Shown here piece after piece: positions 171-50,354 of a stretch of DNA of 64,000 nt (its first letter is position 1; every line of letters starts with the position of its first letter). Position numbers and translations under genes: made by a program. Below the pieces are notes generated by a model, which was given only the letters and a program-made list of their open reading frames with translations, had not been told where the DNA came from and searched no databases. The stretch spans positions 1 to 64,000 of the forward strand of contig JAQUXE010000002.1 of the NCBI GenBank assembly GCA_028692555.1, written 5' to 3'. The stretch comes from Minisyncoccota bacterium. GTDB lineage: Bacteria; Patescibacteriota; Minisyncoccia; Minisyncoccales; Minisyncoccaceae.

Positions 171-578
171 ATGTCATTATCAAAAACAAAGAAGACATTT
201 CTTCTATTTATACTATTGTTTTTAGCTGTTTCTCCTGTTTTAGGAGGTGGTCTGGTTCCTGATGATTGTGATGGTTTTGAGAAAGATGGCGTTAGGGCCT
301 GCAATTCTAATGACTTAATAGGAATGGTTGCTACTATTTTTGATTTTATAGCTTTCACAATTGTTCCTCTTGTTGCCATTATTGGTTTCGTAGTAGCCGG
401 AATAATAATGATGACTTCGGGAGGAGATCCAGGAAAGTTTAATCAAGGTAAGTCTGCCATGATTGCAATTGCAGCAGGAATAATAGTTATTTATCTTGCA
501 TGGACACTTGTAAGTCTTTTTATAACAATACTAGGAGGAGAAACATGGATTACAACATTTTTCAAGAACGGTGATTAA
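171..578 (+). CDS. small secreted two-helix membrane protein with VirB2/TrbC-pilin-like core (distant paralog of N-domains of 6868-11783 proteins)
   Basis: Signal peptide, short Cys-containing segment, then two hydrophobic helices separated by loop GGDPGKFNQGKS. Same architecture and loop pattern (G-D/N...AK/GK) as the three larger minus-strand proteins. Confidence 0.4.
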   Translation: MSLSKTKKTFLLFILLFLAVSPVLGGGLVPDDCDGFEKDGVRACNSNDLIGMVATIFDFIAFTIVPLVAIIGFVVAGIIMMTSGGDPGKFNQGKSAMIAIAAGIIVIYLAWTLVSLFITILGGETWITTFFKNGD

Positions 579-6110: not shown

Positions 6111-6890
6111 ATGTCAAGAAACTTTTCCACACCAAAAAAAGAAGATGTTTTCCTTAAAAAAGGCCTTGGTCAAAACCTTTTGACTGATAAAAACATAATT
6201 AATAAAATAATTAATAACATTGATATTAATAAAGATGATGTTGTTTTAGAAATTGGTCCAGGACTAGGAGCAATCACTATTGAATTATCTAAAAAAGCTA
6301 AAAAAGTAATTTGCGTTGAAAAAGATAAGGAGATGATTGAGAAACTAAAAGAGAAAGTAGGGGACAATGTAGAAATAATTAATGCAGATGCTCTTGAATT
6401 CATCAAAGACATTGATCTTAAAGAATACAAGGTTGTTGCAAACATTCCATACTATATTACTTCTTCAATAATTAAGGGCCTACTAGAAAGCACCAATCAG
6501 CCAAGCGATATTTATTTAATGATACAAAAAGAAGTAGGGCGCAGAATATGCTCTAAGCCAGGAGATATGTCTGTCTTAGCAATATCAGTCCAATATTATG
6601 CAACTCCTAAAGTTCTCTTTAATGTTTCTAAGAATTCCTTTTATCCCGCCCCCAAGGTAGATAGCGCTTTTATCCAAATTAAGCCCAATGGGATAAAAAA
6701 GAATGATGACTTTTTTAAATTAATTAAAAAAGGCTTTTTTCATCCAAGAAAAAAGCTTGCTAATAATTTAGAAGCTAGAGAGTTCGTAGAAAATTGGCTC
6801 AAAGAGAATAAATTGAAAGCAGGGGAGAGAGCAGAAAACTTAAGTGTTGAACAATGGAAAGACCTTTTTAATCTAATGAAAAGACCATAA
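6111..6890 (+). CDS. rsmA: 16S rRNA (adenine1518/1519-N6)-dimethyltransferase
   Basis: 259 aa. KsgA N-terminus LGQNLLTD, SAM motif LEIGPGLGAIT, NIPY motif. Confidence 0.85.
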   Translation: MSRNFSTPKKEDVFLKKGLGQNLLTDKNIINKIINNIDINKDDVVLEIGPGLGAITIELSKKAKKVICVEKDKEMIEKLKEKVGDNVEIINADALEFIKDIDLKEYKVVANIPYYITSSIIKGLLESTNQPSDIYLMIQKEVGRRICSKPGDMSVLAISVQYYATPKVLFNVSKNSFYPAPKVDSAFIQIKPNGIKKNDDFFKLIKKGFFHPRKKLANNLEAREFVENWLKENKLKAGERAENLSVEQWKDLFNLMKRP

Positions 6891-8025
6891 TTTCCTTAGG
6901 TGAAAAAAAAGAATCCATTTTTCCATCAATCACCCTATAGAAAGGACCATATTTTATCATATTAATACAAGTAGTATTTTTTGAATCAATATATTGACAA
7001 GATTCTTCTGCCTCATCTTCACCATCAATTAATCTCCCTCTCAAGAGTATCCCTGTTCTTTTTGAAACACCAATGGACAAAATGTCTCCTTCAAACCCAC
7101 CATCTTCTGATTGACAATCTTCTTCCAACAACTCGCTGATTGACTTAAACTCATTAATATTAAAACTGCAAGAATACTCTTCTGGCAAAGGACAAGGATT
7201 CGGCTCTTCCCATTCATCATCGTGATCGTCTATTTCTCTGCAATATTTATCAACCTTAGGCTCGCAATTATAATTATTATATATTGTAATTTCACCCCCT
7301 GTTTTGCCTGCGAGGACAACTAGTGAAGCTAAAGTATCTTGACCTATTGGAGGGTCATTTTGGTCGCCCAAAGCATTGTCTAGATTGGAAATGCTTCCTG
7401 TAATGTATGAGCATTTTCCTCTGAATTCTGTTCCTGTAATAACCTTGCCCTCATCAGCTTCTCTATCTGCAAAAAGTATTGCTCCTAAAGTCATATTATC
7501 TGGTTGGTTAATTTTAATTGAAGAAGTTTTTCTGTAAAAGCTATCACTAATTAAACTGGCCTTTGAGATTTTAATATTTAGAGGATCTTCTTCTGTTTCA
7601 TAATTAACTTCGCTGTACAAAAAAATACCCTTTCCTTCAGGAATAACAATGTCTATCGGTTCATAGTCACTACCTATATCATCAATATTAACATTCATTA
7701 TTGCTGGGTTAATAGTATTGATTATAATATAAGATGTAAATAAAACAGCAAGGCCAGTAAAAACTGCTGCTATTTTTCTCTTTGCTGAATTAATAACTTT
7801 TGCATCACCATAAGCAGAAACCCACTCTAATCCAGCTATAATTAAAAGCACTACACCCAAGAAAGATCCTATCGCTGTTATTATATAAAAAAGATAGGTA
7901 ATAAACTGTGATGCTGTTGTATCAGGATCATTAATATTAATTCCGCCAATAATAGGATAATCAGCTAATATTATATTAGGAAAAATCAAGAATCCTATTA
8001 AAATTAAAAATATTATTTTCTTCAT
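6868..8025 (-). CDS. surface protein: VirB2/TrbC-pilin-like N-domain fused to Cys-containing ectodomain (paralog 1)
   Basis: Signal peptide, then two hydrophobic helices flanking loop EWVSAYGDAKVINSAKRKI and INTINP. C-terminal ~250 aa acidic region with paired Cys. Overlaps next gene by 1 nt. Confidence 0.55.
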   Translation of the reverse strand: MKKIIFLILIGFLIFPNIILADYPIIGGININDPDTTASQFITYLFYIITAIGSFLGVVLLIIAGLEWVSAYGDAKVINSAKRKIAAVFTGLAVLFTSYIIINTINPAIMNVNIDDIGSDYEPIDIVIPEGKGIFLYSEVNYETEEDPLNIKISKASLISDSFYRKTSSIKINQPDNMTLGAILFADREADEGKVITGTEFRGKCSYITGSISNLDNALGDQNDPPIGQDTLASLVVLAGKTGGEITIYNNYNCEPKVDKYCREIDDHDDEWEEPNPCPLPEEYSCSFNINEFKSISELLEEDCQSEDGGFEGDILSIGVSKRTGILLRGRLIDGEDEAEESCQYIDSKNTTCINMIKYGPFYRVIDGKMDSFFSPKEIMVFSLD

Positions 8026-9353
8026 CAGTCAGCAGAAATAATTATAAATGATTGCGGTTTTACTCCCCATGTTTCATAAACAGAAGTTCCACTAATATCA
8101 GCGTAACATGTTCCTCCCTCAAGTAACGAGGAGTCAAAATATTTACAATTCGTGCCTATGCCTGCCTCACCTTGCTTAGAAGTGCTTAATACTAGCCCCG
8201 CATTTCCTAAAATCTCAAAAGATAAAATTGCATCGCCTTCGTCCCAACCAGAACAATTATCAAGAATATTGATATGCCTTGTTGTTGAGCTAATATTAAC
8301 CCTACATTCTTTAATTTCTGTTGAACCAATTGTTGGCAAGGATATCGCCCCTGGTTGTTTTCTTCCACAATTTTTAGTTGTATAAAAAATAACTTGACCT
8401 CTGTCTATTGTAACTCCCGGAGTTGAAACTTCTTTTTTTACAACCAAAGAAGAAATTCTATTATTTCCTATACTCTCACTGTATTGCCACTGGTCCTTCG
8501 CACTTGAGTTTAAATTGTCTATTGACTCTCCAACTAGGGAACAAAATCCTTCATGGTTCGGATTTGCAAAAACAACTGCTCGGTATTTTTCCATTCCTCC
8601 TTGAATAATTTCTATTGACTGAGTTTTATTATTAAAATTAGAAGAAATTAAATTGGAAATACTAGTAGCGGTATAGATAGGGTAGGGAGAACTACCAAGA
8701 TTATAATTTACACTGTCATATAAATAAACTCCTTGATAGTGCCTTAAAAAATATATTGATTTAGCTCCTGAAATATCACCTGAAATATTACCAGAAACAT
8801 CCATTTTAAATGTTCTTCTTGCTCCTGTATAATTTTCACCCTCATAGACAAAAGCTTTTAAAATTGTTCCAGATGGAAAATTCCATTTGCTCTCATTTAT
8901 TGTTTTAACAATATCATATTCTATTTTTACTGTATTGCTATCTAAGCATCTTTGAAGCTCTGGCCCATCATCTTCTAACTTAACACCAACAATAATTCCA
9001 CTTTCGCATCGCAAATCATCTATTTGTATATTAGCAATTTGAGGATTAATGGTGTTAATAATTAAATAACTTCCCAAAAGAACTCCAACGCCCAATAGTG
9101 CATTTTTTATTTTTGTTTTTGCTCCATCAATTTTTCCTGGATTTCCATCAGAGGTCATCCACTCTACTCCCGCCATAACAACCATTGCTACGGCTATTAA
9201 TGCTCCCAAACCAACAAGAATTTGAAATATGTATGATATTATTTCTTCTGGCGTAGTTTCGTCGGTGATAATAAACTCTCCGATTTGAACATCGGCAAAA
9301 ACAGGCGTGGAGATTATTAGTAGTAGAAATATTAAAGATAGTATTTTTTTCAT
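8025..9353 (-). CDS. surface protein: VirB2/TrbC-pilin-like N-domain fused to Cys-containing ectodomain (paralog 2)
   Basis: Signal peptide; helix-loop-helix EWMTSDGNPGKIDGAKTKIKN...INTINP nearly identical in pattern to 6868-8025. Divergent C-terminal domain. Confidence 0.55.
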   Translation of the reverse strand: MKKILSLIFLLLIISTPVFADVQIGEFIITDETTPEEIISYIFQILVGLGALIAVAMVVMAGVEWMTSDGNPGKIDGAKTKIKNALLGVGVLLGSYLIINTINPQIANIQIDDLRCESGIIVGVKLEDDGPELQRCLDSNTVKIEYDIVKTINESKWNFPSGTILKAFVYEGENYTGARRTFKMDVSGNISGDISGAKSIYFLRHYQGVYLYDSVNYNLGSSPYPIYTATSISNLISSNFNNKTQSIEIIQGGMEKYRAVVFANPNHEGFCSLVGESIDNLNSSAKDQWQYSESIGNNRISSLVVKKEVSTPGVTIDRGQVIFYTTKNCGRKQPGAISLPTIGSTEIKECRVNISSTTRHINILDNCSGWDEGDAILSFEILGNAGLVLSTSKQGEAGIGTNCKYFDSSLLEGGTCYADISGTSVYETWGVKPQSFIIISAD

Positions 9354-9362
9354 ATTTATATA

Positions 9363-11783
9363 TTAATTGCAACAATAATAATTATCTGTATATTCCTTTG
9401 TTATTAATAAACATCCTGGATTAGAAGCCGTTCCTTCTCTTAGGGGATTATAGAAGCATTGTGATCTTTCATCTTCTGTTAATCTATCACTATTTTGAGG
9501 ATAGCAATTATTATATGGAGGATTAACATTGCCTTTTCCTGGGTAGGGGAACTCTGGGAGAATTAACACTCCAGGATCTGTAATTCCTTCCATGCAACTT
9601 ATCACTTCTATTACTTCTGTTGGGTTATCTTTGTATCCAGCACCATATCCTTTAACGCACCCTGTGAACTTTTTTCTTGAATAAGATAGTTTTTCTAAAA
9701 TATCAAACCTTTTTTCAACTTTAATGCTTAATTCAGGATCACACGATTTAAATTTTCCACCAGCAAGACCTGCCTTCTTGCATGGAGAGCAAACATAACC
9801 AATTACTCCTGAAAGGTTTCCTATATTGTAAAAAGGATGATTAATTTTCATGTCTGATAATTCTAAAAGCCGATTAGAATATTCTTTAAATTTTTGCAAA
9901 AGACCCATTTTGTTCATATTTTGAGACCTTATTTGATGCTCTGCCGAGTCATTAGTCGCCTCAAAACAATGTTTTATTTCTACCTCGCCATCTTCTTCTA
10001 ATATTCCTAAACTAAAATCATCTTCCCAATAATATATTTTATTAATAGCATCACAAAAATTTTCAATAGGACAAACTCCGAAACATGTACTAGGGACACA
10101 GGAATAACAGGAAAGAGTTGTACAACTATATGAACTACAATGACAATTTGATTGACATTTACCAAACCAAGGATTGCCCGACTTACATCTATTACATGCA
10201 CATCCCTCTTGAAGAGACGGAATTAATATCGCCTGATCTCTTATTGCTTTAGATTCATTAATGGTAAAATCTATTCTCCTTATAACTTCCTTGCCCCAAT
10301 CTTCTGCTTCATCAACTGTTTCACCAATTGGAATTACTCCACTATAAAATCCTTTTTCCATTTCTCCCTCAATAACAGAACATTTCTTTTCTCCTGTGGT
10401 TTTTTTTATTTTAGACATTAAAGCATTATAATCACTGCTAAAATAAAAGGTTGCCTCGTCTCCGTCATAAAAATATTCTCTTTGGTCGTCTGTAATTTTA
10501 CATGGCTCTACATCGACAGTCCCTGAAGAATTAAAATTTCTACAATATCTAGAAATATCATAATCTTTAAATGTTGTTTTTTCTATTTTATAATTTGTCG
10601 CTTCGCCTTGAAGCTTGTTAAACTCTGCTAAAGTAATTCTTTCCCCCCACGGCATTTTCATTTTTAACTTTGCTTCTGATAGATTGTTAAGATGCGTTTG
10701 ATAATAATCCCTAAAAAATTCTATTCTTTCGATTCCATCGTCTAATGTTAATAAAATTGGTGCTTCGGGAGCTGTATCCTTAATTAACCCTTGAGAAAAA
10801 CAAATTTCTCTTGGTTTGGTTCCTGCTATTAACCATTCAATTTCTTCGCTTTTACACTGTAGCTCTAATCTATTAGGACAAGGATCATACTTGTATTGAT
10901 TAAATTCTTCTATTGTTTCTACAATAGGGTTTATAATTAATCCGCCTTCGCTTGGCTGAGCATTCGGACATCCTTCTGCAGCTCCGCAACAATTATAACA
11001 ATAACTCCACCAGGAAGAATTTGAACAGGTTCTATAGCTAGTAGAGCAACTACAACCACCATCTTCAGAACAAGAACAGGTAGTACATGAGCCCGTATAA
11101 GAACCGTAAGAACCATGATCGCTAAGGAAGCTAGCGCCCTCATATCTTCCAGTATAGCATCTATTACATCCACATTGCTTCATTAGGTCATTTAATTCTT
11201 CTATTAGAGGATATAAGTGATGTTCAATTTTAGCTGCGTATGCATCAGTTAAAAGTTTTGTACAGTAAAATAAGTCCTTATTTAAAAGAACATCTTTTTC
11301 ATTTATTTTACCATCTTTATTTTGATCAACAACATTTCCGATGATAATATTTCCGGAAGCATCTCTAAGCCTTGTTTCGTATTGATAACAAGGAACATCA
11401 ATAGAAGAAACTCCAGCTAAAATCGCTTCTGTTATTGTGCCCAAGGGTATTTCTTCAAAGGTGTATGTATCTAACTCTTTAACTACCGGTGGCTTGGGCG
11501 TAATTACAGCGGGAGGAGTAATGCTAATTTCGCCAATGTTCAATTCTACATCTAATATATTAGGATTAATTGTGTATATAAGAACATATGAGAGTAGCAA
11601 CACTCCAAGACCTATTAATGTATTTTTTATTTTTTCTTTGGCTCTAGAAAAAGCAGAAGTATCTCCACGAGAATTCAAAAGATTAATTCCCTGAAAAACA
11701 ATCATAAAAACAGTAAGAGCAATCCCTCCCATTATAGCGATATTGAATATACTAACTACTATTTCTCCAAAATTTTGTTCCAT
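9363..11783 (-). CDS. large cysteine-rich surface protein with VirB2/TrbC-pilin-like N-domain and EF-hand/dockerin-type Ca loop (paralog 3)
   Basis: 806 aa. N-terminal two helices with loop NSRGDTSAFSRAKEKIKN...YTINPN; DQNKDGKINEKD at aa 153-164 fits the 12-residue EF-hand loop. Extreme Cys density with CxC/CC/CxxC clusters. Confidence 0.55.
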   Translation of the reverse strand: MEQNFGEIVVSIFNIAIMGGIALTVFMIVFQGINLLNSRGDTSAFSRAKEKIKNTLIGLGVLLLSYVLIYTINPNILDVELNIGEISITPPAVITPKPPVVKELDTYTFEEIPLGTITEAILAGVSSIDVPCYQYETRLRDASGNIIIGNVVDQNKDGKINEKDVLLNKDLFYCTKLLTDAYAAKIEHHLYPLIEELNDLMKQCGCNRCYTGRYEGASFLSDHGSYGSYTGSCTTCSCSEDGGCSCSTSYRTCSNSSWWSYCYNCCGAAEGCPNAQPSEGGLIINPIVETIEEFNQYKYDPCPNRLELQCKSEEIEWLIAGTKPREICFSQGLIKDTAPEAPILLTLDDGIERIEFFRDYYQTHLNNLSEAKLKMKMPWGERITLAEFNKLQGEATNYKIEKTTFKDYDISRYCRNFNSSGTVDVEPCKITDDQREYFYDGDEATFYFSSDYNALMSKIKKTTGEKKCSVIEGEMEKGFYSGVIPIGETVDEAEDWGKEVIRRIDFTINESKAIRDQAILIPSLQEGCACNRCKSGNPWFGKCQSNCHCSSYSCTTLSCYSCVPSTCFGVCPIENFCDAINKIYYWEDDFSLGILEEDGEVEIKHCFEATNDSAEHQIRSQNMNKMGLLQKFKEYSNRLLELSDMKINHPFYNIGNLSGVIGYVCSPCKKAGLAGGKFKSCDPELSIKVEKRFDILEKLSYSRKKFTGCVKGYGAGYKDNPTEVIEVISCMEGITDPGVLILPEFPYPGKGNVNPPYNNCYPQNSDRLTEDERSQCFYNPLREGTASNPGCLLITKEYTDNYYCCN

Positions 11784-11786
11784 ATA

Positions 11787-12116
11787 TTATTCTTCTAAAT
11801 TAAACAACACTGTCATTGTCCAAAAGAACCCTATTCCTCCTAACCATGGAGATGTTTCTCCGATTAAGGGGGTTAAAAATCTTAAATATTTATTCTTGAA
11901 AAGCTTTTTAATTTTGCCAAAGCTTTTTCTTCCTCTAAGAGATGGTGGCCTGTGTCCTCTGATTAACAACCAAGGAAAAAAGATAAACATTCCTGTAATA
12001 TCAAGTATGCCTAAATCATCTAATCCGAAAATAACTAATCCCAATCCGCACAAATCAAGAAATAGGGCAGTGGGAAGCATAAAAAAGGCCTCTGGTGTAA
12101 ACTTAATATTAAACAT
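11787..12116 (-). CDS. small hydrophobic membrane protein, first gene of the pilin-like operon
   Basis: 109 aa, three hydrophobic segments. Stop is 3 nt before the start of the 806-aa gene on the same strand. No recognisable motif. Confidence 0.35.
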   Translation of the reverse strand: MFNIKFTPEAFFMLPTALFLDLCGLGLVIFGLDDLGILDITGMFIFFPWLLIRGHRPPSLRGRKSFGKIKKLFKNKYLRFLTPLIGETSPWLGGIGFFWTMTVLFNLEE

Positions 12117-12538: not shown

Positions 12539-13483
12539 TTAGGAACACACATTTTGCACTTTTTTTAACGCCTCATTTGGAGTTAAACCATCTAGAGCAC
12601 AATGTTCTAAATTATTATATTTAATATTCCATACTCTCAATTCTTTTTTTAATTGTATTATGGTTTTAAAATTGTGTCTATCGTAAAACATTTCTTGATC
12701 AGTTCGATGAGATCTTTCTACCTTTCCATTCTGAGCAGGCTTACCGGGATCGATTAAATAGTGAATGATGTTTTTCTTTCCACATAGAATGTCAAATTCA
12801 TGAAGTCGAGGATTTAAAGGGTCATTAGACTTATTGTATCCTATGTATCTGTTTGTGAAACAACTTCCATTATCAGTTTTTATTGCTCTGATTCTAAAAG
12901 GAGCAATTTCAATTATTCTATTTAAAAACTTAATAGCACAATCATTTCCCATACCATCATATACTTCTAAGTGTCTCCACCTCGAAGCACAGTCAATAGC
13001 TGTAAATTGATAATATTTAAGCCCATTAATGCTTCCTGGTACATATTTAATGTCTATTTCTACTAATTCTCCTGGCTGAAGAAGATTTTTTATATACTTC
13101 CACTTTAACTTTCTAGTCCTGTATTTTCTAACCAATCCTTCCGTCTTAATTATTTTTCCAATTGTCCTTGTATTAATTATGATTCCTTTTTTCTTTAACT
13201 TAAAGTTAAGTTTTTTAGCACACAACTTGGATTCTTTTCTTAGTTTAATTATTTCCTCTTTAATATGAATAGGGGTTTCATTGGGTGCTGTTTTAGGCCT
13301 TCTGCTTCTATTTATTAATCCACCTAATCCATTTTTACGATATTTAGACAACCAGTATTTAATTGTTCTTTCACTAAAGGGAGATACAGAAACTAGATTT
13401 TTAATGCTAATATTTTTCTCTAATATGGGTTTTATCCACCTATATTTTTCTTCTTGTGTTGATTTTGGCATAGTTTTTGACAT
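12539..13483 (-). CDS. IS481-family-like DDE transposase (HTH + rve integrase core)
   Basis: 314 aa single ORF. N-terminal HTH; integrase-core DDE signatures (...QFTAIDCASR..., IKTDNGSCFTN, QNGKVERSHRT). Confidence 0.8.
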   Translation of the reverse strand: MSKTMPKSTQEEKYRWIKPILEKNISIKNLVSVSPFSERTIKYWLSKYRKNGLGGLINRSRRPKTAPNETPIHIKEEIIKLRKESKLCAKKLNFKLKKKGIIINTRTIGKIIKTEGLVRKYRTRKLKWKYIKNLLQPGELVEIDIKYVPGSINGLKYYQFTAIDCASRWRHLEVYDGMGNDCAIKFLNRIIEIAPFRIRAIKTDNGSCFTNRYIGYNKSNDPLNPRLHEFDILCGKKNIIHYLIDPGKPAQNGKVERSHRTDQEMFYDRHNFKTIIQLKKELRVWNIKYNNLEHCALDGLTPNEALKKVQNVCS

Positions 13484-13520
13484 ATGCCTCTAGATTATCA
13501 TAAAAGTGCAATATGTGTGT
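12547..13520 (-). mobile_element. IS element (IS481-like), boundaries approximate
   Basis: Imperfect terminal inverted repeats ACACACAT(T/A)TTGCACTTTT at 12547-12565 and reverse-complemented at 13502-13520 bracket the transposase. ORF stop lies ~6 nt outside the left repeat, so true ends may be slightly further out. Confidence 0.5.
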
Positions 13521-13848: not shown

Positions 13849-15774
13849 ATGATTAAACTTAAAAGGATTTTATTTTTATTTATTTTTATAGCTATTGTTT
13901 TTTGTTTTTTCTTTCCAATTGAGATGACTGGCGCTATTGAGGAATCAGATGATATAATGTTCGATCCTGTCAACACAATAGCGACTGCTATAATTACAAC
14001 GATCGTAGACATAGCAATTAATACTTGTAGCGTGGTCTTAAAAATATCTTCGCAGATTTTGTCCTGGGCTATTGATGGAGGAGGAGTTGATCAGGCAGGA
14101 TCACAAAGCCCCGTTGTTACGGAGGGATGGGGAATAGTAAGAAATCTTGCAAACGCAGCCCTAATTATTGGACTTGTAATCATAGCTATTAATATTATAT
14201 TAGGAAAGGAAGAGGGGCAAGCAAAGAAAACTTTAGTTAACTTTGTAATCGTTGCTCTTCTTATAAACTTTACTCCATTAATTTGTGGCTTCTTTATTGA
14301 CGGGTCAAACATTATAGCCAACAGCTTTATCGGTCAAGGATTAGATCCATTAATGAACAACCAGCTAAATGATGCTGCTCAAGTGATTAGAGAAATGAAT
14401 ATTTTAGAAGCACTTCTTGGGATAGGATTTTTAGTTGTTTTTACAATCATATCTCTTTTTGTTTATCTTCTTTATGCCATTTTGTTTTTAGCCCGAACTG
14501 TAATTTTATGGATATTAATTATTGCTTCACCAATTGCTCTAGCAACAAAAGTATTTCCGAAATCAAATGCTGTCAGAAAATTCTTTCCTAGTATTTTGTA
14601 TTGGGACGATTGGTACGAAATGTTTCTCCAATGGGTAATAATTGTTATTCCTGCAGCTCTCTTTATTCACCTATCCAATATTGCAATAAGAGCAGCTGTT
14701 GTTACAGATTCACCAGGTGATTTCGATAATATTCTTGATTATTTATTAGTTCTTGGCTTTTCCTATTTTATCCCTTTAATTCTTCTAATTGCCGGATTCA
14801 TGATCACAATCTCTTCAGGAGGAAGTGTTGCCGCTCCTCTTGGAGCACTAGGAAAGAAAGCTTGGGCAGCTACCGCTGGAGCGGCTGGAGGATATGCATT
14901 AGGCAAAGCAAAATCTGGAGCAAAAGCAACTGGATCTTGGGTAAAGGAGGGAGCTGTGGGATCAGCAGCAGCTATAATAAAAAGAGAAAATCCTCTTAAT
15001 AAAGCTGCCCGAGATAGCGGAATGGCTAGCGTTGATAAAGTAAAATCAAGCATAGGTGGTGCAATGACAGGTGCAAAAGATTATTTACGTATTGGTGAAA
15101 GTAACACATGGGCGAAAAGATCGGCAGAAACAGAAAAACAATTAGCAGAAGGTATGGATAATTATTTTGACGGATCAAAAGAAGAAAATGTGGTAAAGTT
15201 TAACCTAGCACAACAACAGCTTGAAAAGTTAAGATTGAGTAAATCTTTATCACAGAAAGAACTTTCTAAAAGATATGAAAATCTATTTATTGCCGCTACG
15301 AATAATGGCGACATAGAAGACTCTGCTATTGAGAATTTCTTAAGTCAATCAAAAGGAAAAGGGGTGGACGTTGACTATGGAAAAATGCTAAGAGGAACAT
15401 CTGCTGTTGATATTATGAAAAAATACAAACCAAAAGCATTAGAAAGAGGATTTATTGCAGAAAAACTGGTTGACACTAAACAAGGAGAATATATTCTCAC
15501 TAACCCTAGAGCAACACAAGCTCATAGCAAGGCACTATTTGATGGAATAAAAAACTCAAAAAACACAGGAACACAAGCTGCTGGAGCAGCAAGCATTGGC
15601 GCATCCTCAAGTCCCGGAGATGCTACACAAAAAATAGACCAAGCAGAACAAATTTTGGCAGGAGAGCTCGACAGTCTTAATAGCAAGGCAACTTCATCCG
15701 GATTATCTGACGAAGAAGAAAAAAGAAGAGATGAAGTAAGTGATCAATTAAAGTCGCTAAAAGGAACACAATGA
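13849..15774 (+). CDS. VirB6/TrbL-like polytopic membrane protein with Gly/Ala/Ser-rich hydrophilic C-terminal tail
   Basis: 641 aa. Signal/TM N-terminus, ~6-7 further hydrophobic helices with Trp-rich loops in first 330 aa, then long low-complexity soluble tail. Architecture typical of VirB6/TrbL. Confidence 0.5.
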   Translation: MIKLKRILFLFIFIAIVFCFFFPIEMTGAIEESDDIMFDPVNTIATAIITTIVDIAINTCSVVLKISSQILSWAIDGGGVDQAGSQSPVVTEGWGIVRNLANAALIIGLVIIAINIILGKEEGQAKKTLVNFVIVALLINFTPLICGFFIDGSNIIANSFIGQGLDPLMNNQLNDAAQVIREMNILEALLGIGFLVVFTIISLFVYLLYAILFLARTVILWILIIASPIALATKVFPKSNAVRKFFPSILYWDDWYEMFLQWVIIVIPAALFIHLSNIAIRAAVVTDSPGDFDNILDYLLVLGFSYFIPLILLIAGFMITISSGGSVAAPLGALGKKAWAATAGAAGGYALGKAKSGAKATGSWVKEGAVGSAAAIIKRENPLNKAARDSGMASVDKVKSSIGGAMTGAKDYLRIGESNTWAKRSAETEKQLAEGMDNYFDGSKEENVVKFNLAQQQLEKLRLSKSLSQKELSKRYENLFIAATNNGDIEDSAIENFLSQSKGKGVDVDYGKMLRGTSAVDIMKKYKPKALERGFIAEKLVDTKQGEYILTNPRATQAHSKALFDGIKNSKNTGTQAAGAASIGASSSPGDATQKIDQAEQILAGELDSLNSKATSSGLSDEEEKRRDEVSDQLKSLKGTQ

Positions 15775-15778
15775 ATGT

Positions 15779-16216
15779 ATGAAAAAAATAAACGATAAAA
15801 TTATTGCCTTTTTAGGTGAAATCATATTAAAAAACAATCTAGAGAAAGATGTTATCGATAGCTCTTTTGACTATTCAGAAAGAACTCCTATTTTAGAAAA
15901 AACACTATCAATGATATTTAACGATGTCGTTACACAAAGAATGGAAAATGGAGAAAGGATTGCTCAGTTTCATCCTTTTGTAAAATTAAGAAACATTATT
16001 GATCGTTTAATTAATAATTTAATTAATTACGAAGATGTTCTTCCTTTATTAAAAGAAGAATTTGATTTTCCAAAAGAAAAAGCAAAGGAAATATCTTTAC
16101 TGATAGAAGGAAATAAAGAAATTAAGGAATTGATAGAAAAAGAAGATGATACTGTTTACGAAAAAACAGAAGAAAAGGTGAGTCCCAAAAGTATCGGCTA
16201 TGAGTTATTGAAATAA
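15779..16216 (+). CDS. hypothetical acidic protein
   Basis: 145 aa. Start 5 nt after VirB6-like stop. No motif recognised. Confidence 0.4.
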   Translation: MKKINDKIIAFLGEIILKNNLEKDVIDSSFDYSERTPILEKTLSMIFNDVVTQRMENGERIAQFHPFVKLRNIIDRLINNLINYEDVLPLLKEEFDFPKEKAKEISLLIEGNKEIKELIEKEDDTVYEKTEEKVSPKSIGYELLK

Positions 16217-16236
16217 AAAATGCAGGATAATGATTA

Positions 16237-17493
16237 TCATTTCCTGCTTCTGTTTTTATCTGCTTCGGCGATGAGTGCGTCAATTTCCTCGCGCGAATAG
16301 ATTTTCTTCTTTTCTTCTTTAGTAGAAGACGAGGAAGAGAGTGATGGTGATGTTTTTTGCTGCTCAATAATTTTATTAGCAGCAATGATCGCGCCAATCA
16401 TATTACTATAATCAGCACCGCCGCCTGTGCCAGAACCCTTGGGAAGCTTCATTTCGAAGTATGCCTTCCCATCAATCGCCATGTTCTTATTTACAAGATC
16501 CATAGCAACCTTGAACTGTTTCTTGTACTTCGTATCAAGAACTTCTGGGCTTGTTTCCAGCTCTTGCTGAAGTTTTTCAACCGTCTGTCCGGTTGCCGAA
16601 GCAACCATGCTAAGAGCACTTCCCATACGAGCAATTGCTTCCTTTTGGGCATCTGCTCTAGCTCTCACAAGAGTGGCTTCCATTTTCCTTTCCTCAACAA
16701 CCTTTTGTTGGGTTGCTTGCTCGTACTCAGCATTAGAGGGCACAACCTGAATAACACTCAGGTTAGTAATTTTAACACCATATCTTTCAATAATTTTTTC
16801 AACCCTTTTTGAGATATGATTTTCAAGACTACTAGAAAGTTCTCCTCTTATGATCTCCTCGTAAGAGTTTTTGCTGACGAAATCCCTGCTTGCTCCTTCA
16901 ATCCAAGAAGTCATGGCGGCGTTCCAATCCTTGATTTGAAACATTGCCTTGTATGGATTAAAGATCACTGCTTCAACCTCAATCCACATATTAATGGGGA
17001 CCTTTCCTTCAGTCTCCGCATCCTTAATTTCAACACCATAAACATATGGCATCAAAATTACATGTGCTAAAGGTTCTTCTCTTTGTTCTTTGGTTCCATT
17101 CTTAAACTTTACCCACCTCTGTTGGTAGGTATAAACCCTATAGAAAGGCCAGAGAATAGGGACCATCCCCATTATGTTGAAGGGGACTTTCTCTACTCCA
17201 TCAGCAACATCAAAGTTGCTGAGAAGCACCCTTCCTTGATACTTAATGTAGCATCCATGAAAGGAGTCTCCTTTCATAAGGATCTTTGCGTATCCTTCCT
17301 CGAGGAAGAATCCGAAAATCCCATGGGGTGCCCATACAAGATAAAGCACCAGAAAGACAGCTAGAATGAATACTCCCATTCCAATAAGTACTCCCCAAAT
17401 TATTCCCATTACAAAACAAATAATTGCTGAAAAAACAACAATCATTCCCCCTGTTGTAAGAGGGCTCTCATCAATCTTTTTTCTTACTTCCAT
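16237..17493 (-). CDS. SPFH/band-7 (flotillin/prohibitin-like) membrane protein
   Basis: 418 aa. N-terminal TM hairpin, SPFH-like core, long Ala/Glu/Gln coiled-coil and basic Ser-rich tail. Confidence 0.65.
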   Translation of the reverse strand: MEVRKKIDESPLTTGGMIVVFSAIICFVMGIIWGVLIGMGVFILAVFLVLYLVWAPHGIFGFFLEEGYAKILMKGDSFHGCYIKYQGRVLLSNFDVADGVEKVPFNIMGMVPILWPFYRVYTYQQRWVKFKNGTKEQREEPLAHVILMPYVYGVEIKDAETEGKVPINMWIEVEAVIFNPYKAMFQIKDWNAAMTSWIEGASRDFVSKNSYEEIIRGELSSSLENHISKRVEKIIERYGVKITNLSVIQVVPSNAEYEQATQQKVVEERKMEATLVRARADAQKEAIARMGSALSMVASATGQTVEKLQQELETSPEVLDTKYKKQFKVAMDLVNKNMAIDGKAYFEMKLPKGSGTGGGADYSNMIGAIIAANKIIEQQKTSPSLSSSSSTKEEKKKIYSREEIDALIAEADKNRSRK

Positions 17494-18064: not shown

Positions 18065-18484
18065 ATGCAATACAGAGTTCCTCAATTTATTGAACACCAG
18101 GCAAAAATATTAGGACCATTGAACGTAAAGCAAAGCATGACGATTGGAGTGGTTCTAGTTATTTGTTTCTTTCTTTATTTTGCCATCGGAGAAGAAAACT
18201 TTTTTCTCTTTATTCTTTTAGCGGGACTTCTTACTGGAATAGCACTAGCAATTTCTTTTTATAAAGTACAAGGGCAATCATTGCCAGTAGTAATGAAAAA
18301 TTGGACAAGTTTTAATATCTCTCCTAGGTTATTTCTTTGGAAAAGAAAGCGGTCACCGGTTTTTTTATCAACCGAAAGAGAAAGAAGAGCGATTACAATT
18401 GTTAAACAAGAAAAATCACCATTGAAAATGAGGGACGAAGGGAAGATAGAAGAACTAATTAAGAAAATTGATTTTGAAGAATAA
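18065..18484 (+). CDS. small 2-TM membrane protein, VirB3/TcpE/PrgI-like partner of VirB4
   Basis: 139 aa, two adjacent hydrophobic helices after a short N-terminus. Position directly upstream of VirB4 with overlapping stop/start (ATAATG) matches small partners of VirB4-type ATPases. Confidence 0.4.
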   Translation: MQYRVPQFIEHQAKILGPLNVKQSMTIGVVLVICFFLYFAIGEENFFLFILLAGLLTGIALAISFYKVQGQSLPVVMKNWTSFNISPRLFLWKRKRSPVFLSTERERRAITIVKQEKSPLKMRDEGKIEELIKKIDFEE

Positions 18485-19119
18485 TGGCAAAAGCACCATC
18501 ACAACAATTCATACCAATCCAGCAAATTAGAGAGGGGATAATGGTCCAGAAAGACAAATCCCTAAAGGGCGTTATTTTAGTTTCTTCTTTAAACTTCGGA
18601 CTAAAGTCAGAAGATGAACAAATGGCTATCATTTATCAATTTCAAAACTTCTTGAATTCTCTTGATTTCTCTTGTCAGATTGTTGTTAGTTCTAGAAAAG
18701 TAAATATTACAGGGTATATCGAAAAAATTGGAGAACTAGAAGGAAAGCAACAAAATCAATTATTAAAAATTCAAACAGCTGAATATCGTGCTTTTATCGA
18801 AGAGATTGTTTCTACAGGATCTATTATGACTAAGAAATTCTATATCGTTGTTCCATACTTCCCAATGCTTGAAATAGCTGGTGTTCCAGGACAAACATCT
18901 TCTGAAACAGGAATGGACTTAACAGAGAAGAAGTTTCAAACAGGAAAATATCAATTATGGCAAAGAATGGAGTATGTTTCATTGGGGATAAGAAGATGTG
19001 GTCTAAAATCAGTAAATTTAGGCTCTGAAGAGCTAATTGAATTGTTATGGTCACTTCATCACATTAATCAGGCAGAGCTAGGATATTATCCTGACTTGCC
19101 ACCTGAAATTATAATATAA
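18484..19119 (+). CDS. VirB4/TraE-type conjugation ATPase, N-terminal portion (split gene or frameshift)
   Basis: 211 aa beginning ...FIPIQQIREGIMVQKDKSLKGVILVSSLNFGLKSEDEQ..., the characteristic N-terminal domain of Gram-positive-type VirB4 homologs. Ends 1 nt before the next ORF in another frame. Confidence 0.55.
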   Translation: MAKAPSQQFIPIQQIREGIMVQKDKSLKGVILVSSLNFGLKSEDEQMAIIYQFQNFLNSLDFSCQIVVSSRKVNITGYIEKIGELEGKQQNQLLKIQTAEYRAFIEEIVSTGSIMTKKFYIVVPYFPMLEIAGVPGQTSSETGMDLTEKKFQTGKYQLWQRMEYVSLGIRRCGLKSVNLGSEELIELLWSLHHINQAELGYYPDLPPEIII

Positions 19120-19120
19120 T

Positions 19121-20899
19121 ATGGGATTATTCGGAAACAAAAGACAAAAGAAAGAAAAGATTATGGACAGAGAAATAACTTCTGCAATAGACATTATTTC
19201 TCCTGCCTCAATTGAGGTTCATCCAAATCACATTAAGCTAGAAGAGAAATTAGCAAAAACCTATTTTGTTTTTTCTTATCCAAGATATTTAACTACTGGA
19301 TGGCTTTCTCCAATTATTAATATGGATATTCCACTTGATATTTCTTTCTTTTTTCATCCAATTGAAACAGGTAGCATTTTGAAACAGCTAAGGAAAAGTG
19401 TAACAGAAGTTCAAGCAGAAATAATGGAAAGAGAAGAGAAAGGCCTTATTAGAGATCCGGCACTAGAGACAGCATATCAAGACCTTGAAGACTTAAGAGG
19501 ACAACTTCAAACAGCTCAAGAAAAAATGTTCAAGTTTGGATTATATATTACAGTTTATGCTGATGATATAAAAGAGCTTGAAAGGATAGAAACTATTTTA
19601 AGATCGACGCTTGAGTCTCGTTTAATTTATATCAAGCCAGCACTATACCAGCAAAAAGAAGGACTACTTTCAACTTTTCCCTATGGAACTGATTTATTAC
19701 AAATTCACAACACGTTAAACACAACTCCACTATCAAGTATTTTTCCCTTCATATCATTTGATCTTAGTTCAAACGAAGGAATACTTTATGGATTAAATAA
19801 ACATAACAGCTCACTAGTTCTATTTGATCGTTTTAGTATGGAAAATGCTAATATGGTAATTTTTGCTAAATCAGGTTCTGGTAAATCATATGCTGTAAAA
19901 TTAGAGATTCTTCGTTCTTTAATGATGGGAACAGAATGTATTATTTTAGACCCTGAAAATGAGTTTAAAACGCTAGCTGAATCAGTCGATGGATCATTCT
20001 TTAAAATATCTTTAAGTTCCGAAAGCCATGTTAATCCATTTGACTTGCCCGAGCCAAGGGAAGATGAGCGAGCAGAAGATGTTTTGCGTTCTAATATTAT
20101 TAATCTAGTTGGACTAATGAGAATCATGCTCGATGGATTAAGCGCCGAAGAAGATGCTATTATGGATCAAGCGTTATCTGAAACTTATGCTGCAAAAGAC
20201 ATTACCCCTAACTCTGACCCATCAACATGGGCAGAGAATGTTCCAATTATGTCAGACCTTGAATCAGTGCTAGAAACGATGGAAGGGGCCGATTCTTTAG
20301 TTGAAAGAATAAGAAAGTTCACAAGGGGAACATTTGCCTCCTTCTTTAATCAAAGATCAAATATATCAATGAATAATAATTTAGTTGTTTTCGGTATAAG
20401 GGACATGGAAGATGAGCTTCGTCCTATGGCGATGTTTATTATCATGCGTTACATCTGGAACACAGCAAGAGCGGTCCTCAAGAAAAGAATACTAGTTATA
20501 GATGAGGCATGGTGGATGATGAAAACTGACGATGGAGCATCTTTCTTGTTTGGAATATGTAAAAGAGCTAGAAAATATTGGTTAGGAGTAACAACTATCA
20601 CTCAAGATGTTTCTGATTTTATGCGATCTGATTATGGAAAACCAATCATCACCAACTCTTCTATACAATTACTATTAAAACAAAGTCCCGCAACAATAGA
20701 TTTAATCCAGCAAACATTTAATTTAACTGAGCAAGAAAAATTTCTTTTGCTTGAAACCCCAGTAGGGGAAGGAATCTTTTTCGCTGGACAGAAACATGTC
20801 TCCATTAGAATTATGGCATCATACACAGAAGATCAAATTATTACCACAAGCCCAGAAGAGATAGCAAAAATTAAACAAGCAAAAAACCTGCTTAGCTAG
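19121..20899 (+). CDS. VirB4/TraE-type conjugation ATPase, ATPase domain
   Basis: 592 aa. Walker A FAKSGSGKSY, VirB4 hallmark Walker B ILVIDEAWWMM, conserved C-terminal region. 211+592 aa matches full-length VirB4 (~800 aa). Confidence 0.8.
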   Translation: MGLFGNKRQKKEKIMDREITSAIDIISPASIEVHPNHIKLEEKLAKTYFVFSYPRYLTTGWLSPIINMDIPLDISFFFHPIETGSILKQLRKSVTEVQAEIMEREEKGLIRDPALETAYQDLEDLRGQLQTAQEKMFKFGLYITVYADDIKELERIETILRSTLESRLIYIKPALYQQKEGLLSTFPYGTDLLQIHNTLNTTPLSSIFPFISFDLSSNEGILYGLNKHNSSLVLFDRFSMENANMVIFAKSGSGKSYAVKLEILRSLMMGTECIILDPENEFKTLAESVDGSFFKISLSSESHVNPFDLPEPREDERAEDVLRSNIINLVGLMRIMLDGLSAEEDAIMDQALSETYAAKDITPNSDPSTWAENVPIMSDLESVLETMEGADSLVERIRKFTRGTFASFFNQRSNISMNNNLVVFGIRDMEDELRPMAMFIIMRYIWNTARAVLKKRILVIDEAWWMMKTDDGASFLFGICKRARKYWLGVTTITQDVSDFMRSDYGKPIITNSSIQLLLKQSPATIDLIQQTFNLTEQEKFLLLETPVGEGIFFAGQKHVSIRIMASYTEDQIITTSPEEIAKIKQAKNLLS

Positions 20900-49864: not shown

Positions 49865-50354
49865 GAAAAAAATAATAAAAAAGACAACTCTTTTTTTCGG
49901 AGAAGGTCTTTTAGATTCTTTGTTTTTAGAGTATTTAAAATCAATATACTCATCAAAAAAGATTCATATAACAATACGACGCGGTCGAGGAGGAGACGCC
50001 AAAAAAATCGTCAAAGATTGTATAAAAGTTTTTGGTGATTTTAAAAAAAGAGCTGTTCTTTTAGATAATGATAAGCCAGCAAAAGAAGTTTTAGATGCAC
50101 GAAAGATTGCTAAAGAAAACAATATTATTGTTATAGAAAATACACCATGCTTAGAAGCACTTTTTTTATCTATTCTTGATAAAGATTATGAAAATAAGAA
50201 TACCAAGTGGTACAAGAAAGAATTTGAAAAACATCATAAAAAAGAAATTCAATCTTTTTATGATTTTAATAAAATCTTTCCAAAAGAAATAATTGAAGAA
50301 AAAAGAGAAAAGATTAGTAATCTTAAATTAATAATAGAGACATTAACAAAATAG
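49842..50354 (+). CDS. RloB/AbiLii-like (TOPRIM-related) partner protein
   Basis: 170 aa. N-terminal TLFFGEGLLDSLFLEYL (cf. RloB ilivcEGekTE.yF) and IVIENTPCLEALFLSIL (cf. RloB NPcFElWlLlHF) recalled from the RloB family. 23-nt overlap with upstream ATPase gene. Confidence 0.5.
   Translation: MVAYQRYKKKIIKKTTLFFGEGLLDSLFLEYLKSIYSSKKIHITIRRGRGGDAKKIVKDCIKVFGDFKKRAVLLDNDKPAKEVLDARKIAKENNIIVIENTPCLEALFLSILDKDYENKNTKWYKKEFEKHHKKEIQSFYDFNKIFPKEIIEEKREKISNLKLIIETLTK

Follow-up and report, generated by a model that had tools for sequence, protein, structure and literature searches.

Much of bacterial diversity lies in the Patescibacteria, whose lifestyle is one of attachment to other cells. [quoted passage not shown] Among the unknown genes of methanogen-parasitising Paceibacterales, those with T4SS pilin domains rank with the most strongly expressed (PMC10936435). 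No recognisable adhesin emerged from a large survey of the T4SS in Patescibacteria (PMC12102498).

The closest described systems are the VirB2-like arrays of the Patescibacteria T4SS (PF18895; Quinonero-Coronel 2025, PMC12102498; Wang 2023, PMC10633639). Their members are treated as pilin subunits in both studies and explicitly as small proteins in PMC12102498. The window analysed here, 64,000 nt of a Minisyncoccota contig, encodes an 806-aa protein with a hairpin of the same family. The arrays and this locus share a chromosomal context near dnaA with VirB4, PrgI and VirB6, have no relaxase or coupling protein nearby, and contain several sequence-divergent pilin genes in tandem. Here, however, the hairpin is joined to a 730-aa ectodomain of unrecognised fold, the neighbouring genes encode 300-aa ectodomains of predicted betagamma-crystallin type, and the genes form a fixed orthologous set rather than an array of variable number.

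Type IV pili (T4P) include minor pilins with large C-terminal domains (CofB/TcpB), and PilY1 contains an EF-hand-like calcium site. The shared principle is a pilin module with a bulky tip domain and a lone EF-hand-like calcium loop in a pilus adhesin. The pilus is different (T4P, single N-terminal helix, prepilin peptidase processing), and neither CofB/TcpB nor PilY1 is homologous to the 806-aa protein. In Gram-positive conjugative T4SS, the PrgB adhesins are T4SS-encoded surface proteins of a monoderm and are thought to bring cells into contact. They are held in the cell wall by an LPXTG anchor, and their domains are unrelated to those of the 806-aa protein. No PrgB homologues were found in Patescibacteria (PMC12102498). 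In Gram-negative T4SS, VirB5/TraC is a minor, helix-rich tip subunit that contacts the host and sits on VirB6, with VirB2 polymerising beneath it (PMC12857230, PMC9259494). Its likeness to the 806-aa protein lies in the role proposed below. No sequence or fold match between the two was detected; VirB5 lacks both a pilin hairpin and a high Cys content, and the organism here is monoderm.

Gene content and order of the T4SS locus

The features of the locus are listed in Table 1. The 109-aa, 806-aa, 442-aa and 385-aa genes occur in a fixed order next to VirB6, VirB3, VirB4 and dnaA, and this order is shared by L001–L003 and by about 22 of the 28 genome loci. Each operon gene has its own separate orthologue. 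The initial annotation had described a cassette-like pattern, in which one anchor bears variable tips; this does not fit a fixed set of distinct orthologues found in the same order in most loci. The layout agrees with that published for the Patescibacteria T4SS (PMC12102498).

Table 1. Positions of the 806-aa gene, its parts and its neighbours in the window.
Feature	Position	Strand	Basis
135-aa small T4SS pilin	171..578	+	PF18895 41 bits; TrbC weak
385-aa pilin fusion, ectodomain paralogous to that of the 442-aa protein	6868..8025	-	PF18895 19.5 bits, BLASTP
442-aa pilin fusion, predicted betagamma-crystallin ectodomain	8025..9353	-	Model
806-aa gene, VirB2-like pilin hairpin and ~730-aa Cys-rich ectodomain	9363..11783	-	ORF/translation, homologues, AF2 model
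C-terminal module, aa ~685-806, ends NYYCC	9366..9731	-	Stand-alone occurrence; invariant residues
Cys cluster 2, aa 528-577, starts CACNRC; richest in indels	10053..10202	-	12 Cys, insertions, identity to L005
IPIGETVD motif, aa 484-491, start of second internal-repeat copy	10311..10334	-	Invariant residues, hhalign
Cys cluster 1, aa 204-272, starts CGCNRC; hypervariable	10968..11174	-	13 Cys, entropy, mosaic replacement
Calcium-type loop DQNKDGKINEKD, aa 153-164	11292..11327	-	Conservation; EF-hand/dockerin loop positions only
Pilin hairpin, aa 8-72, two hydrophobic helices with a positively charged loop between	11568..11762	-	PF18895, hydropathy, charge
109-aa membrane protein gene, directly upstream of the 806-aa gene, 3-nt gap	11787..12116	-	Synteny
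IS481-type insertion sequence between operon and VirB6-like gene	12545..13520	-	rve/HTH_32/LZ_Tnp_IS481; 19-nt inverted repeats, 95% complementary
VirB6/TrbL-like polytopic membrane protein, divergent to operon	13849..15774	+	PF19590 TrbL_3 in orthologues
PrgI/VirB3-like, TrsD/TraC-like and VirB4 ATPase genes	18065..20899	+	PrgI PF12666, P-loop_TraG/AAA_10; NCBIfam TrsD and VirB4 N-terminus

The 109-aa protein is 53% identical to its L001 counterpart and is present in 25 of the 28 genome loci, with no match in Pfam or NCBIfam; its gene always lies ahead of the 806-aa gene. The model of the 442-aa ectodomain has a Greek-key topology, and a betagamma-crystallin fold is predicted. The 442-aa and 385-aa ectodomains are homologous (BLASTP, E 3e-13), and the 385-aa protein has an L001 orthologue at 35% identity. 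The downstream ectodomains had been called unrelated; this holds relative to the 806-aa protein but not between the two. The 135-aa protein is encoded by the only further pilin-domain ORF in the window and is a candidate major pilin. In L003, a 132-aa pilin occupies the equivalent position beside the S15 gene.

The VirB6-like gene adjoins the operon in nearly all loci. Its orthologues match PF19590 weakly in L001, L003 and L005, and the L038 orthologue is unflagged. The IS481-type element is no part of the secretion system, and no transposase is called at its position in L004, L005 or L037. L001 has a small gene between the 109-aa gene and the VirB6-like gene; a search for a remnant of it in the window gave no significant match.

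No relaxase or coupling protein is found near the T4SS genes, as described for other Patescibacteria (PMC10633639), and protein rather than DNA transfer is therefore suggested. The 806-aa protein could then be a secreted effector or toxin with its pilin-like N-terminus as T4SS export signal, and Cys-rich secreted toxins are known. This is extremely improbable, since no enzymatic or toxin domain was found in the protein, its fixed single-copy synteny is that of a machine part, no neighbour was identified as an immunity gene, and a two-pass hairpin implies stable insertion in a membrane or pilus.

Reading frame and composition of the 806-aa gene

The 806-aa ORF is intact and aligns over its full length with homologues down to 28% identity (44 homologues). 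It begins with ATG and has a genuine in-frame TAA ahead of it, so that no recoded stop is involved. A longer gene read through a code 25 stop was considered, as the 109-aa upstream ORF is in the same frame, and was rejected: the TAA separates the two ORFs, and table 11 leaves the other genes intact.

The protein contains 44 Cys (5.46%), the highest content of the 62 window genes. The remaining genes have a mean of 0.87% (SD 0.89), which places the 806-aa protein at a z of ~5. The initial annotation called this content extreme. It is high, but 5.5% Cys has precedent. All four Cys strings quoted in that annotation are found in the sequence. The first Cys does not occur before aa 132, and there are two dense clusters (Table 1).

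The N-terminal pilin hairpin

By its sequence, the segment formed by the first ~75 residues is a VirB2/TrbC-like type IV secretion pilin hairpin (PF18895) and not a T4P pilin. The 806-aa protein scores 25.0 bits against a PF18895 cut-off of 26.6 (E 2e-5), and all 26 full-length family members match the profile (best E 1.1e-10). Paralogues score 39 and 41 bits, over the cut-off; the 385-aa protein scores 19.5 bits. The N-terminal domains of the three fusions align with one another and with ORF 171-578, and all match PF18895, which supports the earlier description of the protein as a pilin fusion.

Only two hydrophobic segments are present in the 806-aa protein, at about aa 5-36 and 52-77. The AF2 model places helices at aa 5-37 and 42-72. 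The net charge is -2 in the N-tail, +3 in the loop (NSRGDTSAFSRAKEKIKN) and -2 after the second helix, and the positive-inside rule puts both hairpin ends outside. Two helices, a short positive loop and outside ends characterise a T4SS pilin, as do VirB4, VirB3 and VirB6 homologues in the same locus, and these are present in the window and in relatives. The pilin-like two-helix N-terminus proposed earlier is retained, and its class is corrected to T4SS/VirB2. A T4P pilin is rejected by the start (MEQNFGEIVV), the two helices and the lack of a prepilin-peptidase site (G followed by F/M...E5). Sequence comparison of the hairpin with solved pilins detected no link, and 806 aa is far above the size of any characterised VirB2.

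No cleavable leader or signal peptide is present in the 806-aa protein, which starts 7 residues before helix 1 with TAA as the upstream in-frame codon. The N-termini of the 442-aa, 385-aa and 135-aa paralogues are hydrophobic and signal-peptide-like. The hairpin could be a mere two-pass anchor that is never extracted into a filament, and the protein a membrane-anchored receptor or adhesin independent of the T4SS. The missing signal peptide and the lack of any sign of processing are consistent with this, as are relatives in which an ordinary Sec signal peptide is found and no hairpin is detected, and a relative, P0161, with extra domains both before and after the hairpin. However, the gene is practically always inside the T4SS cluster, and even the split version in L035 sits between VirB4 and another pilin fusion. 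The hairpin is retained in 130 of the 181 relatives, and most of the others are fragments. An independent anchor is rather improbable.

Structure of the ectodomain

The ectodomain is helix-rich, extracytoplasmic and composed of two modules, with two Cys-rich loop clusters and one DxNxDGxIxxxD loop. Beyond PF18895, the ~730 residues have no match in Pfam (all 26 members), NCBIfam or PDB sequence profiles (E up to 1). In 1.84 billion representative proteins the ectodomain family has about 165 relatives, and its genome matches are without exception Patescibacteria MAGs. The AF2 model of the 806-aa protein has a pLDDT of 79 and a pTM of 0.77. The only matches of the ectodomain among solved structures are generic helical bundles, and no adhesin-like fold is recognised.

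Residues 143-265 and 481-562 form an internal repeat (hhalign, E 1.7e-4). In the IPIGETVD motif, I486, G487, E488 and D491 are invariant, and in short secreted relatives the motif comes at most a few tens of residues after the signal peptide. The C-terminal module stands alone in shorter relatives (profile positions 585-715), and N801, Y802, Y803, C804 and C805 of its terminal NYYCC are invariant. The densest Cys stretches are both the low-confidence regions of the model and the least conserved regions. Cluster 1 has high entropy, with low pLDDT at aa 215-260, and aa 541-570 in cluster 2 accommodate 35 inserted residues per sequence. Distant relatives carry additional fn3 and beta-helix domains.

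Location and chemistry of the cysteines

The evidence places the Cys-rich region outside the cytoplasm. L035 carries a gene-fission variant whose second half, corresponding to aa 466-806, bears a separate Sec signal peptide. The positive-inside topology and the added fn3 and beta-helix domains of distant relatives point the same way. To judge from the pattern of Cys gain and loss, the region is most likely disulfide-bonded. Cys columns are gained and lost pairwise across the family, also at long range (730-760, 577-665, 554-668 and 209-530), and the Cys count is even in 20 of 26 members. The initial annotation proposed a disulfide- or metal-knotted extracellular domain, and these results agree with its location and with the first of its two chemistries. 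MdbA-like oxidoreductases and VKOR are enriched in Patescibacteria (10.1101/335083).

Binding of Zn or Fe-S by the clusters, as in a metalloprotein that might be redox-active, is very unlikely. The CxC and CxxC spacing, the many relatives from anoxic habitats and the co-variation of columns 236/554/668 as threes are compatible with metal binding. Paired gain and loss, Cys parity and an extracytoplasmic position argue against it, as does the low conservation of the densest clusters. His is scarce (1-10 per member, with no conserved His column), and a family search with the Cys-rich region matched no metalloprotein family. Many Patescibacteria of this sort inhabit anoxic sites, where stable disulfides outside the cell are not so readily expected.

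The calcium-type loop

Residues 153-164 are a conserved, lone calcium-type loop and a predicted calcium site. The loop shares the 12-residue D-x-N-x-D-G-x-I-x-x-x-D pattern, followed by hydrophobic residues, with EF-hands and the dockerin F-hand (DxDxDG class). Its consensus residues at positions 1, 3, 5, 6, 8 and 12 are D153, N155, D157, G158, I160 and D164, as given in the initial annotation. The loop is the sole match to D.[DN].[DN]G.[ILV]...[DE] in 28,387 aa of six-frame ORFs and is kept in 25 of 26 relatives. D153 and N155 are invariant, D157, I160 and D164 are conserved in at least 90%, and no 30-aa window of the protein is more conserved than the one that contains the loop.

The loop is not the canonical EF-hand or dockerin that was proposed. 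In the AF2 model it is entered by strand or coil and not by a helix, with pLDDT >90 there. EF-hand_1, _5 and _6 reach 12-16 bits, where the cut-offs lie near 25. Dockerin_1, with a cut-off of 22.9 bits, scores 15 and aligns as one segment only, over positions 34-51 of its 57. The alignments of EF-hand_1, EF-hand_5 and Dockerin_1 are confined to the loop positions. A canonical EF-hand is rejected for a lone, unpaired loop without an entering helix and under the gathering threshold. Type I dockerins need two tandem 22-residue F-hand segments, and only one is present.

Variation between strains

Near-identical strains share 96-100% identity in the flanking genes, whereas identity falls to 42-90%, and dS is raised, in the 806-aa gene, the other operon genes and the VirB6-like gene. 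The VirB6-like gene shows only 42% identity between strains that share 99.5% in VirB4. Relative to L005, aa 481-680 are 38-52% identical, the gene ends are 100% identical, and cluster 1 is mosaic-replaced. Relative to L037, codons 1-260 are identical at the nucleotide level, codons 261-365 differ at 51 nucleotides and codons 366-806 at one. The patch replaced in L037 (aa 268-363) begins where cluster 1 ends. Variable patches thus sit in, and just after, both Cys clusters. On these alignments, the variation is between strains within each orthologue, by recombination in or just after the Cys-rich loops; the variability expected earlier is real, but it is not an exchange of tips in a cassette. 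Searches of the window with the gene and the L037 patch (tblastn, blastn) for silent donor cassettes of the pilE/pilS kind returned paralogue hairpins only.

The dN/dS of the variable patches is 0.5-0.6. Because this is <1 even there, positive selection is not shown. An SPFH protein and p145 likewise have elevated divergence, and the island may therefore be a recombination hot spot and not the result of host-contact selection.

These patterns also bear on a structural role, in which the three hairpins would dock on a VirB6-like platform and the ectodomains would form a cell-wall conduit, as stalk or channel parts that replace missing VirB8/VirB5-type components. The strict single-copy synteny with the VirB6-like gene in most loci, the co-divergence of that gene with the fusions between strains and the long helical-bundle core are consistent with such a conduit, and VirB8 homologues are reported to be largely missing in Patescibacteria (PMC12102498). 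Recombining hypervariable loops are unexpected in a purely internal part, however, and partners of the betagamma-crystallin and fn3/beta-helix kinds are typically those of surface-exposed proteins. A structural role is unlikely, if less so than the other alternatives.

Proposed role

The favoured and most likely role of the 806-aa protein is that of a host-contact subunit, either tip or adhesin, of the Patescibacteria T4SS. The reading as a whole, a conserved, surface-exposed T4SS subunit of Paceibacteria-type Patescibacteria that contacts the host as a tip or minor pilus subunit, is somewhat more probable than not. The hairpin would allow the T4SS, via the VirB6-like platform, to treat the protein as a pilin. 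Its place would be the tip, or that of a minor subunit, in a putative VirB2-type pilus or stalk that would be built in bulk from the 135-aa pilin. Calcium would stabilise the conserved core, and disulfides would staple the variable loops to the conserved helical scaffold. The ectodomain would touch the host cell, with the Cys-rich loops as a specificity-determining surface that diversifies through recombination between strains.

To our knowledge, a 730-aa C-terminal extension is without precedent among VirB2-type pilins, and not every subunit could carry one. Further points against a host-contact subunit are the lack of a signal peptide, unlike the paralogues, the lack of a recognised adhesin-like fold, the anoxic habitats and the low-confidence modelling of the Cys stretches.

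A stronger form of the proposal is possible but on balance doubtful. On this view the essential T4SS of Patescibacteria would have its missing host-recognition subunit in this family: a tip adhesin with a VirB2-type anchor and a new two-module fold stapled by disulfides. The two clusters of Cys-rich loops, exchanged between strains together with VirB6-like alleles by homologous recombination, would set the bacterial or archaeal host of the Paceibacteria epibiont.

The locus widens the known cargo range of the VirB2-type pilin module. In the trio, one member has a new Cys-rich architecture with strain-recombining loops, and the other two have ectodomains of predicted betagamma-crystallin type. 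The variable loop segments are delimited closely enough for swapping or mutation where cultures exist. The conserved trio of pilin-anchored ectodomains provides concrete candidates for the host-contact surface of these attached bacteria.

The pilin module and the ectodomain family

The 109-codon ORF upstream lies in the same frame as the 806-aa ORF. Its stop codon is TAA and the remaining window genes translate intact under table 11, which rules out a recoded stop joining the two ORFs; the 806-aa start stands as given.

Residues 8-71 of the 806-aa protein match PF18895 (T4SS_pilin) with 25.0 bits, slightly below the 26.6-bit cut-off. The paralogues of 442, 385 and 135 aa score 39, 19.5 and 41 bits, and also have weak TrbC/VirB2 matches. 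PF18895 is matched by 26/26 full-length relatives (best E 1.1e-10) and is the sole Pfam family found in them. An HMM of the family's N-domain recovers exactly four ORFs in the window, the 806-aa protein and these paralogues, and the four N-domains can be aligned. The PF18895 matches, the HMM and the alignment identify the N-terminus, at the level of sequence, as a type IV secretion (conjugative-type) pilin module. The shared pilin-like N-domain of the initial annotation is thus retained as a T4SS type; a type IV pilus pilin is rejected on the PF18895 matches and the family HMM. The 806-aa protein, unlike its paralogues, has no signal peptide, and the same is true of the consensus of the whole subfamily.

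Searches of Pfam, NCBIfam and the PDB sequence set give no match to the ectodomain. A collection of 5.8 billion proteins contains 44 homologues of the 806-aa protein, which remain full length at identities as low as 28%; source names are given for few of them, and these are Patescibacteria-type MAG entries, with one exception labelled Pacearchaeota. The ectodomain-only profile (aa 101-806) finds only 165 proteins at E <= 1e-3 among 1.84 billion cluster representatives. The pilin hairpin is present in 130 of 181 relatives, and the remainder are mostly fragments. Scanned with a pattern, 185,579 species genomes yield 28 loci, all in Patescibacteria MAGs (Paceibacterota, Minisyncoccales, Nealsonbacteria) save a few evidently mislabelled bins. 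Five public MAG records (L007, L017, L018, L023, L034) are labelled 'Bacillales bacterium UBA6259', 'Candidatus Pacearchaeota archaeon' or 'Saccharibacteria'. The gene sits in a Paceibacteria-type context where flanks exist, and these records are probably mis-binned or mislabelled.

Features of the window, with protein identity to the close strain L004
Feature	Position	Strand	Identity (%)	Remark
806-aa pilin fusion	9363-11783	minus	86.8	intact 806-codon frame, ATG start
Ca-type loop DQNKDGKINEKD	11292-11327 (aa 153-164)	minus		
N-Y-Y-C-C end	9366-9380 (aa 801-805)			
442-aa pilin fusion	8025-9353	minus	89.6	
385-aa pilin fusion	6868-8025	minus	77.9	
135-aa small pilin	171-578			
109-aa membrane protein	11787-12116	minus	76.1	
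IS481-type insertion	12545-13520			
Transposase ORF	12539-13483	minus		
VirB6/TrbL-like protein	13849-15774		42.0	
p145			48.3	
SPFH protein			56.8	
Divergent-allele island	13849-17493			VirB6-like, p145, SPFH
T2SSE-family ATPase region	31216-33550			
Defence-like genes	48644-50354, 53433-54011			

Calcium-type loop and cysteines

The loop DQNKDGKINEKD is the sole match to D.[DN].[DN]G.[ILV]...[DE] in the 28,387 residues of the six-frame ORFs of the window. In the family alignment, D153 and N155 are invariant, D157, I160 and D164 are conserved in at least 90%, and the motif is intact in 25/26 relatives. The 30 residues from 151 to 180 have the lowest entropy in the protein, below the pilin hairpin. 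Pfam EF-hand_1, EF-hand_5, EF-hand_6 and Dockerin_1 align to the loop positions only, with 12-16 bits against cut-offs of 23-26. The structure model (pLDDT >90 here) enters the loop from strand or coil rather than helix, and the protein contains no second loop. These features point to a DxDxDG-class loop that is probably functional. They exclude the canonical EF-hand or dockerin proposed initially, of which the 12-residue loop itself survives.

The extreme cysteine content first noted alongside the loop is confirmed. The protein has 44 cysteines (5.46%), the top value among 62 tabulated window genes; the others average 0.87% (SD 0.89), and a 122-aa DksA/TraR-type zinc-finger protein ranks second. 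The first cysteine occurs no earlier than residue 132. Thirteen cysteines crowd into aa 204-272 and 12 into aa 528-577, and both of these dense clusters open with C-x-C-N-R-C.

Approximately 30 of the 44 cysteine columns are conserved, and the variable ones are gained or lost pairwise across the 26-sequence alignment. Counted as both, only first, only second or neither, the pairs give 25/0/0/1 (730-760), 22/0/0/4 (577-665), 7/0/0/19 (554-668) and 15/1/0/10 (209-530). The last pair bridges the two clusters and has at least two independent losses, with both residues changed to Ser, Ala or Gly. Cysteine number is even in 20/26 members (binomial P = 0.005 assuming independence, although members are not independent). 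Histidine is scarce (1-10 per protein) and has no conserved position. CPR genomes are enriched in MdbA-like thiol-disulfide oxidoreductases with VKOR adjacent (10.1101/335083). Pairwise gain and loss, even counts, scarce histidine, these oxidoreductases and the extracytoplasmic location favour disulfides over metal sites. The metal half of the proposed disulfide- or metal-knotted ectodomain, and with it the rival reading of the protein as a metalloprotein, is disfavoured; columns 236, 554 and 668 co-vary as a triple, which leaves room for a metal site.

Internal repeat, fission and export

In a profile-profile comparison, aa 143-265 align with aa 481-562 (E 1.7e-4, probability 50%). Both copies run from a strand motif (IIIGNVVD or IPIGETVD) through a long helix and C-x-C-x-x-C into a Cys-rich stretch, and the Ca-type loop is an insertion within the first copy. 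Members of a short subfamily (300-470 aa) begin with a standard Sec signal peptide; GKIPIGETVDE comes at most a few tens of residues later, and then a helix, a Cys cluster in several members and a C-terminal HCYPYN...MDNYFCC module. These sequences lend independent support to the two-copy anatomy.

In locus L035 (2737-5433), two adjacent genes replace the 806-aa gene between VirB4 and another pilin fusion. The first encodes 426 aa: an N-terminal extension of ~50 residues that is presumably a leader, then the pilin hairpin and the region corresponding to aa 7-451 (E 2e-30). The second encodes 470 aa corresponding to aa 466-806. The Ca-type loop of this split version is degenerate. Because the 470-aa product has its own Sec signal peptide, the second half is exported alone, and the ectodomain is therefore extracytoplasmic. 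In distant relatives there are additional fn3 and right-handed beta-helix domains, both characteristic of surface proteins.

The N-Y-Y-C-C end, one residue from the C-terminus, is invariant across the family, and most short secreted relatives keep a near-identical NY[FY]CC. Its vicinal cysteine pair could form an intermolecular link.

The T4SS locus

The 806-aa gene lies in a Patescibacteria-type chromosomal T4SS adjoining the replication origin. The order is small pilin, S15, PNPase, coiled-coil protein, DksA-like protein, LysM-M23 peptidase, KsgA, the minus-strand operon (109-aa, 806-aa, 442-aa and 385-aa proteins), IS481-type insertion, VirB6/TrbL-like protein, p145, SPFH protein, p147, PrgI/VirB3-like, TrsD-like, VirB4, Jag, YidC, dnaA and dnaN. 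No relaxase or coupling protein is found within the window. The same layout has been published, with VirB2-like pilin arrays close to KsgA, M23/LysM and dnaA (PMC12102498; review PMC12857230).

The order VirB6-like (minus), 109 aa, 806-like, 442-like, 385-like, KsgA (minus), M23 recurs in ~22/28 genome loci. Alongside a 35%-identical 806-aa homologue, the 442-aa, 385-aa and 109-aa proteins have orthologues of 40%, 35% and 53% identity. An orthologue of the 442-aa protein is also encoded in a Nealsonbacteria MAG, and the 442-aa protein itself is 100% identical to the NCBI entry 'MAG: pilin [Candidatus Pacebacteria bacterium]'. The three pilin fusions thus read as a fixed set, each with its own orthologue, and the suggested cassette of one anchor with variable tips is not borne out.

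The 109-aa protein has several hydrophobic segments and no family assignment. It precedes the 806-aa gene in 25/28 loci, directly upstream in nearly all. Speculatively, it may be a TraQ-like insertion helper for the signal-less fusion.

The IS481-type insertion is bounded by terminal inverted repeats of 19 nt (95% complementary). In the close strains L004, L005 and L037, no transposase call falls at this site; L038 has a 62%-identical transposase at another place.

Elsewhere in the window, a T2SSE-family (PilB/PilT-like) ATPase gene adjoins a 350-aa ORF without a Pfam match; this region probably belongs to a type IV pilus system distinct from the T4SS. Defence-like genes (an AAA_21 (AbiEii-like) ATPase with RloB-like partner, and a SLOG-family (LDcluster4) protein) occur amid housekeeping genes.

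Variation between close strains

Compared with L004, flanking genes are 96-100% identical (VirB4 99.5%, TrsD-like 100%, M23 99.2%). The block between them, from the 385-aa protein to the SPFH protein, is much more divergent (42.0-89.6%). In this block, dN and dS are both raised (dS 0.35-1.7, dN/dS 0.16-0.4), and dS reaches 1.5-1.7 in the VirB6-like, p145 and SPFH island. In most flanking genes dS is 0.03-0.22, with the 88-codon S15 gene (0.48) as sole exception. The joint rise indicates that the block carries divergent alleles imported by recombination.

Relative to L005, aa 1-160 and 721-806 of the 806-aa protein are 100% identical, and identity falls to 50-60% in aa 201-280 and 38-52% in aa 481-680. 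Relative to L037, codons 1-260, 261-365 and 366-806 contain 0, 51 and 1 nucleotide differences. The variable segments are both Cys clusters and the stretches immediately after, which are also family-wide hot spots of entropy and indels. Strain-level recombination centres on these Cys-rich loops. The window holds no silent donor copies of the gene, and the alignments describe mosaics between close strains, not cassettes.

Interpretation

The 806-aa protein joins a VirB2-type hairpin to a Cys-rich domain that is exported, has two modules and carries a conserved Ca-type loop; its gene is conserved, in single copy, within the Paceibacteria T4SS locus. Very probably the protein represents a new family of extracytoplasmic, T4SS-associated pilin fusions. 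Pilin arrays and the T4SS locus are already known. The accessible literature does not mention a VirB2-type module with a 730-aa ectodomain, nor the ectodomain family, its internal duplication and fission, or the mosaic Cys-rich loops.

For function, we lean slightly towards host contact. Through its hairpin, the protein would be handled by the VirB6-like platform like a pilin; the 135-aa pilin would make up the filament, in which the 806-aa protein would occupy the tip or be a minor subunit. Its ectodomain cysteines would form disulfides, and the variable Cys-rich loops would contact the host. A functional likeness to VirB5 and to minor pilins with bulky tip domains is proposed. Rival readings are a structural part of the stalk or channel, a plain membrane-anchored surface protein and an effector. 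The host-contact reading is consistent with T4SS pilin-domain genes being highly expressed in Paceibacterales parasitising methanogens (PMC10936435). Host-dependent growth of Southlakia epibionticum requires the T4SS together with its pilin array (PMC10633639). Adhesins are reported absent from Patescibacteria T4SS (PMC12102498); if the host-contact reading is true, the 806-aa protein would fill this gap.
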